Source: a virus
Reading direction: 5' to 3' (one strand)
Virus record (IMG/VR): IMGVR_UViG_3300035180_000246
Coordinates: 1 to 64,000 of that record
DNA length: 64,000 nucleotides
Positions within the stretch are counted from its first letter, which is position 1. Each line of letters begins with the position of its first letter. Below the pieces are notes generated by a model. The model saw only the letters and a program-made list of their open reading frames with translations, did no database searches and had not been told where the DNA came from. Both the position numbers and the translations under genes were made by a program. Below are positions 54-5,796 of this stretch, piece after piece.

Positions 54-461
54 TCACACCTCGATATATGGTGTAATCTTGATTTCTACTCTTGGATTTA
101 GCTTATCTTGTCCTCCTACTGTTGCAGACTCTTTAATACAATATTGGACATTATCATTTACAACTGCACCATAGTTTTGTAAAGCATCATTAGTAAATTT
201 ACTAATTAAGCTTACTACGTTCATCAGATCACTAACTGTACTTTTATAGTAATAGACATATTCAATCTGGTATTTGCCTACTATTTTAGGAGGATCAAGA
301 TTAAGTAGTTGGTGAACTATTAACCGTTCAAAATGGACTTTAACCTTATTTTTAAGATGAAAGTGTATATTTCTATACACATTCATACCTAATAGGAAAG
401 TTTTACTTGGCTTAGTCTTGAATGTTTCTTCATAGTAGACAGGAAGTGTTAAGTTAATCAT
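54..461 (-). CDS. RusA-like Holliday junction resolvase
   Basis: SDLMN..K...DAL...G.V.ND-type acidic motif and C-terminal DKLNPRVEIKI; last gene of replication module in window. Confidence 0.65.
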   Translation of the reverse strand: MINLTLPVYYEETFKTKPSKTFLLGMNVYRNIHFHLKNKVKVHFERLIVHQLLNLDPPKIVGKYQIEYVYYYKSTVSDLMNVVSLISKFTNDALQNYGAVVNDNVQYCIKESATVGGQDKLNPRVEIKITPYIEV

Positions 462-739
462 ACGAAATACAGATCGTAAAATAAATCACGTACAGGTGTA
501 GATTGTGAATCTATATCGATAATATTATCAACTGCATCCATAACTGCTGCTGCACGTAATTTTTTATAAGCTTCTTCGTCAGGTTCTACAATACTTACAG
601 CAAATTGTGCTGAACCTACCATCTCAAAACCAGTGTTAAGTAACACAACAGCTGTAGCTGTATTCTTACTCGGTGATAGTTTTGTATGAATTTGTACAAT
701 ATCTACATTATAATTTGAATTAGTAGTTATGCTAATCAT
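458..739 (-). CDS. Divergent N4 Gp49/Sf6 Gp66-like (Tad1-like) small protein
   Basis: TATAVVLLNTGFEMVGSA...A..DAV.NI resembles the family pattern T.C.L.L.NGF.V.G.S...A..NA; adjacent to Acb2 and Tad2. Confidence 0.4.
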   Translation of the reverse strand: MISITTNSNYNVDIVQIHTKLSPSKNTATAVVLLNTGFEMVGSAQFAVSIVEPDEEAYKKLRAAAVMDAVDNIIDIDSQSTPVRDLFYDLYFV

Positions 740-789
740 AAATTCTCACCAGTAAATTAAATTTATCCATGCATGTATCCTTTTGATAA

Positions 790-1014
790 TTAAAAAGAAG
801 TTGGTTTAGCAACACTACGGACTAATGCCATAATGCCAGTTTGTAAGTCAGTTCGTCCGATACTTACCCAACGTTTATCAGTCGAGTCTGTATCTAATAA
901 ATACTGAACTAACGTTTCAAGTGTTTGACCTGCTTGCTTAATAGCGTTCATTAAGTTAATTTCTTCTTGACTTAATTCTCGATAACCAGTGATTAAACGA
1001 TGTTGATTTTCCAT
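790..1014 (-). CDS. acb2: Anti-CBASS cyclic-oligonucleotide sponge Acb2
   Basis: MENQHRLITGYRELSQEEINLMN...RWVSIGRTDLQTGIMALVRSVAKPTSF closely follows Acb2 of N4-like Pseudomonas phages. Confidence 0.9.
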   Translation of the reverse strand: MENQHRLITGYRELSQEEINLMNAIKQAGQTLETLVQYLLDTDSTDKRWVSIGRTDLQTGIMALVRSVAKPTSF

Positions 1015-1515
1015 TTAGTTCTCCTCTACTACATACCAGTCAGAACTTAGAAGGTCTGTCTGGCTCGCCAACCAAGGTACTTTTGCGTTAATGTGTGAGC
1101 TGGGCGCACTGTCACTTGCAGGGGTAGTCGGATACTGCATATACAGGTAAGGTAGACTCATGTCTGAGCCTTCTAAAGGCTGTTGCACAGAGATTTTTAA
1201 GCCTTTACCGTTCCAGCCGCGTCGTGCGATGGCGAAGCCTTGCTTTGCCAGCTCTAACGCTAGTCCGAATGGTAGATTACTATGTACGTTATGGTATGCA
1301 TCGTCGAATACTTGTTCTGGAGACCAAGATACATAGCCTTCGTGTCCCTGAACATTCGATTCTTCCCCTTGACGAGGTTCGTACTCGATTAGATACCCTT
1401 CGTCATCGAATTTCTCATCTGAAGGTAATGACCACCCTCTGTATGTGTTGTAGTCTCCACGTGTCATAGGCGTAGCTTTAACACTCTTTAACCCAATATG
1501 TGTTGTGGTATACAT
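1015..1515 (-). CDS. tad2: DUF2829/Tad2-family nucleotide sponge with extra N-terminal domain
   Basis: C-terminal FGLALE..K.G....RRGWNGK...W..SQTDLL..DW signature; N-terminal KSVKATPMTRGDY..GY.IEY..YVSWSP..VF domain. Confidence 0.8.
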   Translation of the reverse strand: MYTTTHIGLKSVKATPMTRGDYNTYRGWSLPSDEKFDDEGYLIEYEPRQGEESNVQGHEGYVSWSPEQVFDDAYHNVHSNLPFGLALELAKQGFAIARRGWNGKGLKISVQQPLEGSDMSLPYLYMQYPTTPASDSAPSSHINAKVPWLASQTDLLSSDWYVVEEN

Positions 1516-1541: not shown

Positions 1542-1616
1542 TGGTAGGACCGCAGGGACTTGAACCCTGATTGAACGATTATGAGTCGCCTATTCTAACC
1601 TTTGAATTACAGTCCT
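1542..1616 (-). tRNA. tRNA with CAT anticodon, most likely tRNA-Ile2 (lysidine, reads AUA)
   Basis: AGGACTG/CGGTCCT acceptor plus ACCA; GGTTAGA..AGGCGACTCATAATCG resembles bacterial ileX; T-arm CAGGG TTCAAGT CCCTG. Confidence 0.9.
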
Positions 1617-1619
1617 ATA

Positions 1620-2036
1620 TTAGTTACCGACAAACTTAGTTTTAATACCACTATCTTGTAGTAGTTTTAAACCAAGAGTATCTTTATAGTACTCGTTAAA
1701 GTACACAGTTTTAATTCCTGCCTGAATAATCAACAGAGCACAGTTTATGCATGGACTTAGGGTCACAAACATAATAGCTCTATCTGTTGAATGACCTAAC
1801 TTAGCTGCTTTAGAAATAGCATTAAGTTCTGCATGTATTGTTGTAGACTTAGTAATACCTTCCAGGTCTTCACAACAGTTATCCATACCTCTAGGACTTC
1901 CGTTAAAGCCATATGCAAGGATGTTACTAGCATCTTCTGAAACTAGTACTGCTCCGACTTTACGCCTTCTACAGTGACTTCTAGAAGCCACTAATGTAGC
2001 CATACTAGAATAGAAAGTTACGTCTGCTGGTTTCAT
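1620..2036 (-). CDS. dCMP deaminase
   Basis: HAELNAI and TLSPCINC zinc motifs; C.RRKVGAV; GFNG. Confidence 0.92.
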   Translation of the reverse strand: MKPADVTFYSSMATLVASRSHCRRRKVGAVLVSEDASNILAYGFNGSPRGMDNCCEDLEGITKSTTIHAELNAISKAAKLGHSTDRAIMFVTLSPCINCALLIIQAGIKTVYFNEYYKDTLGLKLLQDSGIKTKFVGN

Positions 2037-2087: not shown

Positions 2088-2116
2088 AAAAAAGCTCTCT
2101 GTTATGAGCAGAGAGC
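2088..2116 (-). terminator. Rho-independent terminator after SSB
   Basis: GCTCTCTG-loop-CAGAGAGC followed by T6 on minus strand. Confidence 0.75.
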
Positions 2117-2141: not shown

Positions 2142-2870
2142 TTAAACTTTTTTACCGAACTTACTACTAATAGAAGTTCCGCCTACAGAAGGTGCAACTG
2201 TAGTTGAAGCACCTGTACCACCTTTAGACTGTACACGCTTATCTTTAGTACCTAAGTTAGGATTCTCAGTGGTAGGTGTGTTACGTTCAGCCCATGACTT
2301 AATATAAACACCTTCTGTTAAACCAGATTCGAGTTCTACTACAGTACAGCCTGTTTCTGTATGGAATACTTTATCAATACTAAAGACTGTACGTGATTTT
2401 GTAGGATCTTTGAATTGATCTTCCAAAGTAGCTGTAACACCTACAGTAATCTCTTTACCAATTAGATCGGTAAGAACTTGCTTAGTAGTAGGTACATCTT
2501 TATTAAGATCGTAGTTACGCACCATAACTGTTTTTTCTTCTGGTTCTAGCTCAAACAATTCTTGATCAGCAGTCAATCGAGACATATCGTTCATGGTAGT
2601 AAAGCTAGGTAAGTACTTCTGAGCACCTGATTGCTTGTCGATATAGTAATGTTTCTTACCTTTTTCACGACCAGATGTTACATACTCTTTAGTATTGAGT
2701 GTAACACCTGCTGGTGATACTAATTTTAATACTACTGCCAAAGCTTCACTAGCAGATTCTTCTAAATAAGCCATTTCGATAGTCATGTTATGAATACCTG
2801 TAGTCATTTTAGGACGATCAGTTGCAACTTCGATATCTGCGCTGCGTTTTAAATTAGCTAATAGTGACAT
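2142..2870 (-). CDS. N4 gp45-like single-stranded DNA-binding protein
   Basis: AYL..SAS.A, YVTSG.EKG, YLP.F, IDKVF motifs; C-terminal S.FG; synteny after gp44. Confidence 0.85.
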   Translation of the reverse strand: MSLLANLKRSADIEVATDRPKMTTGIHNMTIEMAYLEESASEALAVVLKLVSPAGVTLNTKEYVTSGREKGKKHYYIDKQSGAQKYLPSFTTMNDMSRLTADQELFELEPEEKTVMVRNYDLNKDVPTTKQVLTDLIGKEITVGVTATLEDQFKDPTKSRTVFSIDKVFHTETGCTVVELESGLTEGVYIKSWAERNTPTTENPNLGTKDKRVQSKGGTGASTTVAPSVGGTSISSKFGKKV

Positions 2871-2926: not shown

Positions 2927-3673
2927 TTAATCGTAATATTCATGTAAACGATCAATAACGTGTTGAAGATTGTTATCAATAAATGTTTCGTCGATAGACC
3001 ACATCTTCATAGGACTACGAATGCGTTCATTTACAGTTTCTTTAGTTAAGCGTGTTTGAAATACATACTTAAATCCTAAAGCTTCTTCTTCTGGTGTAAT
3101 CTCTAATAAAGGGTTAGTAGCTTTTAACTGTTTCATAGATACTTTTTTAGTACTAATTACAGTAGAAAAGAAAGCTTCTACACCAGCATTAGCTAACGAA
3201 CCTTTAACAGGTACTTTAGTTTCTAACACCATTTCAGATTCATTCATAATCTGACGTGTATGTGCTAAAAAGATTACATTCTTAGTAGATTTAGCTACAG
3301 TTTGTAGCATCAAATTTCTCAAGAATTGTGCGTAATCTCCCCATGCTTTCATAGTATTTGCACTATTAATAACATAAGTAGATTCAAACATATCCATTAG
3401 AAACGTTAAAGTATCCACTACGATAGTGTGAATGTGAGGCATACCTTCAGCAGCTGCAAATCCTTGTACTATCTCCAATGGATCTGTAATTTGATATTCC
3501 TCAAATTTACTTTTAAAGGGTAATTTTTTAGATTCACAGTTTAAGTACATTACACCTTCTGGATTTTTAAGATCCATAAGACATGCGCTCTTACCTGTTG
3601 CAGAAGCACCGCTAATCAATACTAAGTGGTCATTCTGGATAGTATCTTCTTCTGAATTTGAGTTGTCACTCAC
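2927..3673 (-). CDS. N4 gp44-like AAA ATPase (Sak4-like annealing protein)
   Basis: Walker A GASATGKS, IVVDTLTFLMD, IFLAH, ERIRSPM. Confidence 0.85.
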   Translation of the reverse strand: MSDNSNSEEDTIQNDHLVLISGASATGKSACLMDLKNPEGVMYLNCESKKLPFKSKFEEYQITDPLEIVQGFAAAEGMPHIHTIVVDTLTFLMDMFESTYVINSANTMKAWGDYAQFLRNLMLQTVAKSTKNVIFLAHTRQIMNESEMVLETKVPVKGSLANAGVEAFFSTVISTKKVSMKQLKATNPLLEITPEEEALGFKYVFQTRLTKETVNERIRSPMKMWSIDETFIDNNLQHVIDRLHEYYD

Positions 3674-5796
3674 GAACGTTTCTCCATATATTTACGATGT
3701 ACACTAATCATCACTGTTGTATCTAGTTCAGATACGGGTAATGGTTTAGGTAATTTGCTGTTAAACTCATTGATAGCAGACTTGATTACATCTAGGTCGT
3801 AACCTTTATCTACTAAAGCATAAGCATATTTAATGAGGGTATTACTTCTACTGCCTTCTGTGGCTTTAGATGCGAACCAGCGTTCTAAGTTATTTAGATT
3901 ACTATGTTCATTAATAAAAGTAGCTTGTTCATCGGCTTTCTTCGTCTTAGGAATAAACAAAGTATCGTCGAATAACATACCATCATTATAATAATGTGTA
4001 CCTGCGTTAGTAGCCCATTTACGAGCATAGTCAGCAGTAGCTTCATCTACCTTAAATGGTAACCAATCAAATACATTAGCCATAAAAGCTTTGTAGGCTT
4101 CTTGGTCAAGTAAAAGCTTGTGTGTCATAGGTAGAATAATTCTGAATCTGTTAGCAGCATCTGTATGTCGTTTAGTTGTATAAATTAGGTACTTGTAATC
4201 TTGTAATAAGATTCTAACTGTATCAATGGATGTACCACCATCTACATCTAAAACTACCATATCAAACCCTGGCATAACACTTTCAGAATTTCTATAGCCA
4301 TTACGTAAGTGGTGTGCTGTGAAATGTAAGTTATCACTACATACCAACTTATGTAAGTCATCCCAGTTAGCTAGTATATTCTCATAACCAGTAGTAATAT
4401 TATCACTATAGGCTATAGTAACTTCTTCTAGATTAGTCTCTTTCAGAGATTCACCTTTAAAGAACTCAACTGTACTATCAAAACTTTTAGTAATAACGAT
4501 GTTATGTTTATATCCATAAGCAATCGCTAAGTTCATAAGATCACGTCTACGAGATTCAGTACCGTTATAAAACTGCAAGTCTTCAAGTAGATCGGCATGT
4601 GTTACTGGATGCTCTACGTTAGCTAAATACTTAGCCAATTTAATGTAAGGCTTTTCACGATACATGATCGAATTGAATGCTGCACCTGAGTCTTCCGCTA
4701 ACTGAATTGCACAATCTAGATGATGTTGACTAATAGACTTAGCCTTATCAACAAATGCATATGCACCAGCTAATTTAAGTGCCTTATAATAACGATGAGT
4801 TACCTCAGCTTTTAAAGCTTCTTTATGATCTGGAATATTCTCTGCTAAACGTTCACAGTTAATCTTATACTCAATGAGTTTAAGACTAGTAGCTTTGTCC
4901 ATACTGAGAGCTACACTATAGTACTGAGAGTCTGCTAACTCATTAAACCAGTCTGAGATGTCTTGTACAGACGTAACCATAGCAGATGATGTCATTGCAT
5001 CATAGACTTCATCAGGTGTACGTGTATCGGCTTTACGGGCTGATTGAGTATACGCAAAATACATACGTCTAGCGTAACCAGTACGAAGTAAATCATCAAA
5101 GTCTTCTTCAGTTTTAGACGCATTTAACAACTTACTAGGAGTCCCAAACATAAGTAGATTGGCTGGACTTGCGCCATTCATTTCTACAGAACGTTTGTTC
5201 TCTGCAGTACTTTTAGTAATTTTTTGCTTAATAAGACCTTTATCAAATAATGATAGGTAGTCTACTAAAGCTTCAATATTGCCAGCTAAGTTAGAGCCTA
5301 CTTCATCAACAATTAAGTTTAATGAACCAGTGCGAGCCATTAGAAGCTTTCTGCGTAACTGCTTAATGGCAGCACTAGTAGCACTGTCAAAAGTAAATGG
5401 TAGAGTCCCTAGACCTTCATACTCAGCGGTTAATTGTTCCAGGATACGATCTGGATCATTACCAGTAGCTGATGCCGTCTTTAATGCAATAGCATTAAGA
5501 TTCTTGGCAGCATTTACGTTAAAGACCTCATCCATGAAATCATCTTTAAATGGATCTACAAGCAACTCTTCAAGAGTAGTCATGGTAAATGTTTTACCTG
5601 CTCCTGAAGGTTGTAGAGCCAATGCGTAAAGGTTTACTGGAATAGTACCTCTATCATGTGTCTTGATCTCTGTACGCATCATAGAAGCAATTAAGGACAT
5701 ATAATAAGCTGTCATGATACGGAAGAAGTGTCTATCTTCTCCACCAGTACGTCCTGCCAGCACATCTACGATCTGTTCTGAACGTGCATGGTACAT
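3670..5796 (-). CDS. N4 gp43-like DNA primase
   Basis: PSGAGKT P-loop, VLDVDGG, YTTKRH, RFRIILP, C-terminal G.RSNTL PriCT-like segment. Confidence 0.85.
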   Translation of the reverse strand: MYHARSEQIVDVLAGRTGGEDRHFFRIMTAYYMSLIASMMRTEIKTHDRGTIPVNLYALALQPSGAGKTFTMTTLEELLVDPFKDDFMDEVFNVNAAKNLNAIALKTASATGNDPDRILEQLTAEYEGLGTLPFTFDSATSAAIKQLRRKLLMARTGSLNLIVDEVGSNLAGNIEALVDYLSLFDKGLIKQKITKSTAENKRSVEMNGASPANLLMFGTPSKLLNASKTEEDFDDLLRTGYARRMYFAYTQSARKADTRTPDEVYDAMTSSAMVTSVQDISDWFNELADSQYYSVALSMDKATSLKLIEYKINCERLAENIPDHKEALKAEVTHRYYKALKLAGAYAFVDKAKSISQHHLDCAIQLAEDSGAAFNSIMYREKPYIKLAKYLANVEHPVTHADLLEDLQFYNGTESRRRDLMNLAIAYGYKHNIVITKSFDSTVEFFKGESLKETNLEEVTIAYSDNITTGYENILANWDDLHKLVCSDNLHFTAHHLRNGYRNSESVMPGFDMVVLDVDGGTSIDTVRILLQDYKYLIYTTKRHTDAANRFRIILPMTHKLLLDQEAYKAFMANVFDWLPFKVDEATADYARKWATNAGTHYYNDGMLFDDTLFIPKTKKADEQATFINEHSNLNNLERWFASKATEGSRSNTLIKYAYALVDKGYDLDVIKSAINEFNSKLPKPLPVSELDTTVMISVHRKYMEKRS

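Follow-up and report, generated by a model that had tools for sequence, protein, structure and literature searches.

We analyzed the first 64 kb of the IMG/VR virus record IMGVR_UViG_3300035180_000246, a sequence of 73,858 bp that is rated as complete by CheckV; these 64,000 nucleotides are referred to below as the window. Close to its beginning lie three small adjacent open reading frames (ORFs) on the minus strand, which an initial annotation, made from the letters alone, had located at these positions and regarded as a compact island directed against nucleotide signalling. Proteins of the sponge families capture the alarm molecules of bacterial antiviral defence. The present data support this general view of the locus, with a correction to the identity of one gene. 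The three ORFs, together with the two domains of ORF-A, are the following.

458–739, minus strand: ORF-C, 93 amino acids, orphan protein and probable remote relative of Acb4 (PF13876-like), as judged from hhalign, hidden Markov model (HMM) ranking, fold match and synteny
790–1014, minus strand: ORF-B, 74 amino acids, predicted short-form Acb2 sponge (PF24729, PDB 8h2j)
1015–1515, minus strand: ORF-A, 166 amino acids, two-domain Tad2-type protein (PF11195, phrog_872, matches to solved Tad2 proteins)
1018–1275, minus strand: residues 81–166 of ORF-A, Tad2/DUF2829 sponge domain
1282–1515, minus strand: residues 1–78 of ORF-A, accessory 'YRGW' domain

The stop codon of ORF-A (TAA) directly abuts the ATG of ORF-B, while ORF-C starts 50 nt beyond ORF-B with a GGTGA Shine-Dalgarno sequence. 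ORF-C in turn overlaps by 4 nt (ATGA) with the gene for a RusA-like Holliday-junction resolvase, and this overlap is kept in the loci L002 and L004.

ORF-A is a member of the Tad2 family. Its residues 83–163 match positions 3–73 of the 73 positions in the Pfam model PF11195 (Tad2-like; E 6.3e-17, 62.3 bits with a cut-off of 25), and the full-length protein matches phrog_872 (E 9.7e-45) and has more than 2,200 full-length relatives. Matches to solved Tad2 sequences were obtained at E values from 1e-9 to 3e-5, namely to HgmTad2/AcrIIA7 (1.1e-9), SptTad2, SPO1 Tad2 and ModTad2 (PDB 8kbi, 8wjd, 8sme and 9eib), and the Tad2 fold was found for ORF-A, of which the AlphaFold2 (AF2) model has a predicted local distance difference test score (pLDDT) of 92.9. 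The two motifs from which the initial annotation had derived its DUF2829 assignment are present as RRGWNGK (residues 98–104) and SQTDLLSSDW (residues 151–160). In HgmTad2, mutation of W21/N22 and of S90/T92/D93 abolishes the binding of glycocyclic ADP-ribose (gcADPR) (bioRxiv 10.1101/2023.11.15.567273), and in a phmmer alignment these pocket residues are kept in ORF-A as W101/N102 and S151/T153/D154. Residues 80–164 of ORF-A thus have the fold and the gcADPR-pocket residues in common with the solved Tad2 proteins, and the insertion between β2 and β5, which forms the cyclic-dinucleotide pocket in HgmTad2, is likewise long (about 35 residues). ORF-A differs from these proteins in its extra N-terminal domain and in the residues of the cyclic-dinucleotide pocket, since R31 and N85 of HgmTad2 correspond to Q111 and V146 in the sequence register. 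Judging from the conserved pocket, ORF-A would bind Thoeris signals of the gcADPR type, and it would do so as a tetramer.

The N-terminal domain of ORF-A had been overlooked in the initial annotation. It is a conserved unit of about 78 residues with a β-α-β-β-α order and an SH3/Tudor-like small-barrel fold, and it has no match among the Pfam models, so that PF21825 (Sequestin) or a ryanodine receptor (RyR) repeat was rejected as its identity. Neither was its motif found in the supplements of Hadary et al. In 73 of the 80 viral loci that hold this domain it is fused to Tad2, and in the remaining seven the ORFs combine it with Acb2 (PF24729), with Acb4 (PF13876, in either order) or with Sequestin (PF21825); loci that hold the domain include L016, L022, L030, L041, L046 and L091:14143–14694, and the sponge partner families were confirmed with Pfam on five representative ORFs. 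A homologous domain is present in gp68 ('RyR-Tad') of Pectobacterium phage CB1 (hhalign 93.8%, E 1.7e-7, over residues 8–76 of ORF-A), where it also precedes a sponge domain within an N4-like hotspot, the C-terminal partner in CB1 being an RyR-repeat sponge, whereas it is Tad2 in ORF-A. The viral contigs and the published gp68 together bring the partners to five sponge families (Tad2, Acb2, Acb4, Sequestin and RyR-Tad). According to a preprint, the domain by itself is inactive against type I Thoeris. Candidate roles are oligomerisation or the binding of another ligand; by analogy to RyR-Tad, the domain may mediate dimerisation by strand swap.

ORF-B, which had been recognized in the initial annotation as an Acb2 homolog abutting the Tad2 gene, is a member of the Acb2 family. 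It matches the Acb2/Tad1 hairpin model PF24729 (E 1.2e-17, 64.2 bits with a cut-off of 27) and aligns end to end with Acb2 of phage PaMx33 (PDB 8h2j; E 2.9e-19), which forms hexamers and acts as a sponge for both cyclic di- and trinucleotides. The two proteins differ in length, PaMx33 Acb2 having 93 residues and ORF-B 74, because the hairpin tip of ORF-B is shorter by about 19 residues. This 74-residue form of Acb2 occurs in 236 phage records, and we therefore consider it a normal short form. In PaMx33 Acb2, Y11 and K26 are required for the binding of cyclic dinucleotides, and R67 and T74 for that of cyclic tri-AMP (cA3) (PMC10312549; Hadary et al.). ORF-B keeps all four of these mutationally tested residues (Y11, K26, R48 for R67 and T55 for T74), and L14 and P71 (P90 in PaMx33 Acb2) are conserved as well. 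As both residue sets are retained, ORF-B should soak up signals of the cyclic-oligonucleotide-based antiphage signalling system (CBASS), for which it would assemble as a hexamer. An abutting Tad2-like/Acb2 pair recurs in an unrelated, non-syntenic viral contig of 40.8 kb (L014:1432–2235 and 2382–2639), where an unrelated ORF of 85 residues follows the pair in place of ORF-C. The recurrence of the pair in front of a different gene suggests that the two genes travel together as a mobile cassette.

ORF-C is of a different kind, in that no match to Pfam, PHROG or the PDB sequences was obtained with it, either singly or as a profile. Only six further relatives, with 44–86% identity, turned up when 5.8 billion proteins were searched through a word index and 1.84 billion representatives exhaustively with HMMER, so that the family counts seven members. 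P0008, a low-complexity repeat protein of 2,839 residues, was discarded as a spurious HMMER match. A feature search in the ESM Atlas gave a best score of 0.82 and no Pfam family, and a phage collection searched with the locus and with ORF-C, at near and at protein level, gave no match. The three relatives with a visible genomic context come from related N4-like contigs, and each is located there between the Acb2 and the RusA gene. ORF-C is a real gene, because length and reading frame are conserved in the family, 24 alignment columns are invariant, and the comparison with the homologue in L002 gives 18 synonymous and 22 non-synonymous codon changes. It should be noted here that three close database homologues of ORF-C and ORF-A (P0003, P0139 and P0154) are labelled in NCBI as belonging to a metagenome-assembled genome of 'Ignisphaera sp.'; here, contigs of phages have almost certainly been mis-binned as parts of an archaeal genome.

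The AF2 model of ORF-C (pLDDT 93.1, predicted template modelling score 0.82) consists of four strands followed by two helices (residues 55–74 and 81–91). This layout bears a superficial likeness to Tad1, as which the initial annotation had labelled the protein ('Tad1/Gp49-like'), and a divergent Tad1 would combine an N-terminal sheet with a C-terminal helical hairpin of the Acb2/Tad1 type in a gcADPR-binding hexamer. However, ORF-C does not match PF24729 at E≤1, while its neighbour ORF-B does so at 1e-17, it has no sequence match to any solved Tad1, and no Tad1 was present among the top 50 matches of three fold searches, although absence from such a list is not in itself an exclusion. In addition, the motif to which the label referred, L.TGF..VG.A, is indeed present as LNTGFEMVGSA, but it is a feature of the Gp49 family PF13876, which is Acb4. 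The Gp49-like motif is thus real, whereas the Tad1 identity was rejected and seems to us highly improbable.

PF13876, the family of N4 Gp49 and Sf6 gp66, has been described as the Acb4 sponge family (Chang et al., bioRxiv 10.1101/2024.12.30.630793), and several observations, weak but concordant, connect ORF-C with it. In fold searches of the PDB, the top match was Acb4 of phage SPO1 (gp1.3; PDB 9e4w), a tetrameric sponge for 3'3'-cyclic GMP-AMP (cGAMP), and among the structural neighbours of ORF-C in BFVD are one protein of PF13876 and one that is a fusion with a Tad2 domain. When the ORF-C family was aligned by hhalign to PF13876 alignments built from homologues of N4 gp48, the P values were 7.1e-4 (24 sequences) and 3.4e-4 (120 sequences). 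The scores of 24.9–27.2 were reached by none of 400 column shuffles, in which the highest value was 20.0, and a Tad2 control alignment scored 12.7, so that the shared motif is beyond chance. The aligned pattern reads T-x-x-[AC]...L-x-[NT]-G-F-x-[VM]-x-G-x-S-A...[DE]-P and continues into the next helix. Among the 423 frames of the window, ORF-C came first with unfiltered PF13876 HMMs (E 0.0076 and 0.073, 8–11 bits), the next frame having E values of 0.43–0.55. In the reverse direction, when 271 frames were ranked with the ORF-C HMM, Acb4 of PGN829.1 came second and Acb4 of N4 third, and the same HMM ranked Acb4-Sequestin first of the seven Ab09 hotspot proteins.

Two alignments place F38/E39 of ORF-C in register with F48/E49 of SPO1 Acb4, the residues that recognise the guanine of cGAMP and stack on it, and the two proteins may have a three-stranded sheet with two C-terminal helices in common. 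The invariant GFEMVGSxQF segment, the most conserved one in the ORF-C family, would form the equivalent of the Acb4 pocket hairpin and loop. K25 of ORF-C was dropped as a counterpart of K36 in Acb4, since the alignment register places N26 at this position. Synteny points in the same direction: in N4 and in PGN829.1, a PF13876 gene adjoins a Tad2 gene of the same two-domain form, shortly ahead of the gene for the virion RNA polymerase, and a search with the Pfam model and PF13876 alignment found no canonical PF13876 gene in the whole complete genome. Furthermore, Tad2 and Acb4 are often fused, and it was such fusions that led Tal et al. to Sequestin.

Against a relationship with Acb4 speaks, first of all, that ORF-C, P0006 and P0007 have no match to PF13876 at E≤1 to 10 (the Pfam gathering score being 27 bits), and that the hhalign probability is only 26–38%, which leaves the profile comparisons positive but short of the usual certainty. 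The WELEGY block of PF13876 is absent from ORF-C, as the initial annotation had stated for the LEGY motif, and the first block (NGF...G.SAC.DP) is only partly kept (LNTGFEMVGSA...EP); the profile alignment of ORF-C with SPO1 Acb4 also stops just before the WELEGY block, at profile position 70 of 93. The β3-α4 loop, which forms the pocket, carries a 4-residue insertion in ORF-C, and a single basic position (R62) is conserved across the seven family members, which is unusual for a phosphate-binding pocket. Moreover, ORF-C and SPO1 Acb4 share just 14–21% identity, the N-terminal part consists of strands in ORF-C and of helices in Acb4, and the Acb4 contact residues V56, Y57, F62, N63, I66 and T70 are not recognisably kept. 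As it remains below the Pfam threshold, we did not file ORF-C as a member of PF13876 and call it Acb4-like instead. Weighing these data, we regard ORF-C as probably homologous to Acb4, and the chances that it acts as a sponge as even. An additional ORF of 98 residues with an LDNGFEY motif follows RusA in the related N4-like contig L004 (4813–5109); hhalign aligns it weakly with the N-terminal half of PF13876 (probability 21%, P 1e-3), and it is possibly a further Acb4-like gene of strong divergence.

The translational coupling of ORF-C to RusA and a β-β-β-α core resembling those of double-stranded RNA-binding domains or of Rad52/Sak proteins would also fit a small accessory protein that binds nucleic acids or assists in recombination as a partner of RusA, and that is no sponge. 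ORF-C is, however, very acidic (isoelectric point 4.35, net charge about −6), which is poorly suited to nucleic-acid binding, and it has an acidic isoelectric point in common with PF13876 members. The matches of the Rad52 type span merely a sub-core of far larger oligomerising domains, the phage already encodes a Sak4-like annealase and an SSB, and ATGA overlaps are common among unrelated phage genes. The sole sequence-level signal leads in both directions to PF13876, and such a role seems to us quite unlikely.

A further, rather unlikely proposal concerns the pocket itself. ORF-C could found a small, so far unrecognised offshoot of the Acb4 fold, in which a remodelled pocket loop, with the GFEMVGSxQF segment, the inserted residues and no WELEGY joint, binds another immune signal than canonical Acb4 does, or has lost the binding of decoy nucleotides such as c-di-AMP or 2'3'-cAA and so escapes the guard systems Panoptes and PanDA, which sense sponges. 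For Acb4 of N4, binding of c-di-AMP at 111 nM and triggering of PanDA have been described (bioRxiv 10.64898/2026.08.10.743972). If this proposal were true, three or four distinct binding modules, the N-terminal domain of ORF-A being the fourth, would cover complementary signals.

The genomic setting was examined with the following features of the window.

54–461, minus strand: RusA-like Holliday-junction resolvase (phrog_1682, E 5.9e-27)
1542–1616, minus strand: tRNA-Met(CAT), just upstream of ORF-A (ARAGORN)
1620–2036, minus strand: dCMP deaminase
2094–2116, minus strand: terminator-like hairpin 3' of the SSB gene (8-bp stem with 5 GC pairs, then a T-run; consensus scan)
2142–2870, minus strand: SSB
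2927–3673, minus strand: Sak4-like annealase
3670–5796, minus strand: primase

In gene content and gene order, the phage corresponds to an N4-like podovirus of the Schitoviridae type. RusA is the last gene before the convergent gene for the virion RNA polymerase (vRNAP), of which the ORF of at least 3,168 residues occupies the opposite end of the contig. With the DNA polymerases of N4-like Klebsiella phages in culture, that of the present phage shares only 42% identity, and no DNA-level match to the locus was found among phage records, from which we conclude that the lineage is uncultured. The consensus scan detected no further convincing terminator on the coding strand between the hairpin behind SSB and RusA, except for a weak 5-bp palindrome within ORF-C; the deaminase, the tRNA, ORF-A, ORF-B, ORF-C and RusA may therefore be co-transcribed as one unit, as far as such a scan can indicate. 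A perfect 14-nt palindrome, ACAGCTGTAGCTGT, at positions 648–661 inside ORF-C was flagged as terminator-like on both strands and is probably incidental. Close relatives differ in the content of this region. In L004, an ORF of 62 residues rich in lysine (L004:3798–3986), with a weak Hc1-like match below the Pfam cut-off, lies between Acb2 and the ORF-C homologue, and an ORF of 63 residues (L004:2859–3050) takes the position held by tRNA-Met in the window.

The locus sits exactly within a published anti-signalling hotspot of N4-like phages, which, according to the accessible parts of the preprint describing it (bioRxiv 10.64898/2026.06.04.730250), extends from primase to vRNAP with SSB and RecA-like genes interspersed, and contains Tad2, Tad3, Acb4, Sequestin, the RuvC-like Bes1 and Bes2. 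The same parts of this source indicate that Bes1 and Bes2 of phage Ab09 neither bind nor cleave signals, so that the hotspot also holds inhibitors other than sponges. ORF-C might correspondingly be a hotspot anti-defence protein with another mechanism, its Acb4-like fold being convergent or vestigial; the missing WELEGY block, the remodelled loop and the rapid evolution apparent from the codon changes would be in line with this. On the other hand, conservation in the family is highest precisely in the hairpin equivalent to the Acb4 pocket, and ORF-C is dissimilar in sequence to Bes2, ORF58 and ORF62–64 of Ab09 and to the frames of the CB1 hotspot. These proteins were accordingly rejected as relatives of ORF-C, and we consider another mechanism more improbable than a nucleic-acid-binding role.

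Based on the present data, we see in this locus another instance of an already known type of phage counter-defence locus, with one divergent member. The explanation that we favour, with a probability of about 0.62, is that of a counter-defence cluster in a variable hotspot, composed of a Tad2-type, a short-form Acb2 and a diverged Acb4-like sponge. Most likely, three small proteins would here sequester immune second messengers of the host, and ORF-C, as a highly diverged relative of Acb4, would be an oligomeric sponge with its pocket around the GFEMVGSxQF hairpin. Islands of this type reveal which signalling defences of the host a phage lineage encounters, and the uncultured lineage described here joins Tad2, Acb2 and an Acb4-like gene in a recently described hotspot. 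As a very divergent Acb4-type protein, ORF-C would be missed by Pfam-based censuses, and current counts of phage sponges would therefore be underestimates. With its altered pocket, ORF-C is also a low-cost candidate for a new ligand specificity.

Among known systems, phage N4 provides close counterparts. N4 gp49 has the same two-domain architecture as ORF-A with about 37–41% identity, and gp48 (Acb4) neighbours this two-domain Tad2 near vRNAP. The gene order differs in N4, and in the present locus an Acb2 gene is inserted. Furthermore, gp48 reaches 119 bits with the PF13876 model, whereas ORF-C has neither a Pfam score nor the WELEGY block nor the Cys-rich C-terminal tail. The hotspot of Ab09 (gp59–61), as far as it is described in the accessible text of the preprint (bioRxiv 10.64898/2026.06.04.730250), resembles our locus in its position between primase/Sak4/SSB and the convergent vRNAP, in the presence of several adjacent small anti-signalling genes, and in a Holliday-junction resolvase gene within the cluster. 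It differs in content, the present locus holding a two-domain Tad2, Acb2 and an Acb4-like orphan, with no sequence similar to Ab09 Bes2 found. The resolvase of Ab09 is the RuvC-type Bes1, which is usual in the published N4-like hotspots and has a reported anti-Thoeris II activity, whereas it is of the RusA type here. Relative to the list given in that text, the occurrence of Acb2 within an N4-like hotspot and the replacement of the RuvC-type by a RusA-type resolvase within the cluster are new, to which ORF-C probably adds an Acb4-like lineage that is invisible to Pfam.

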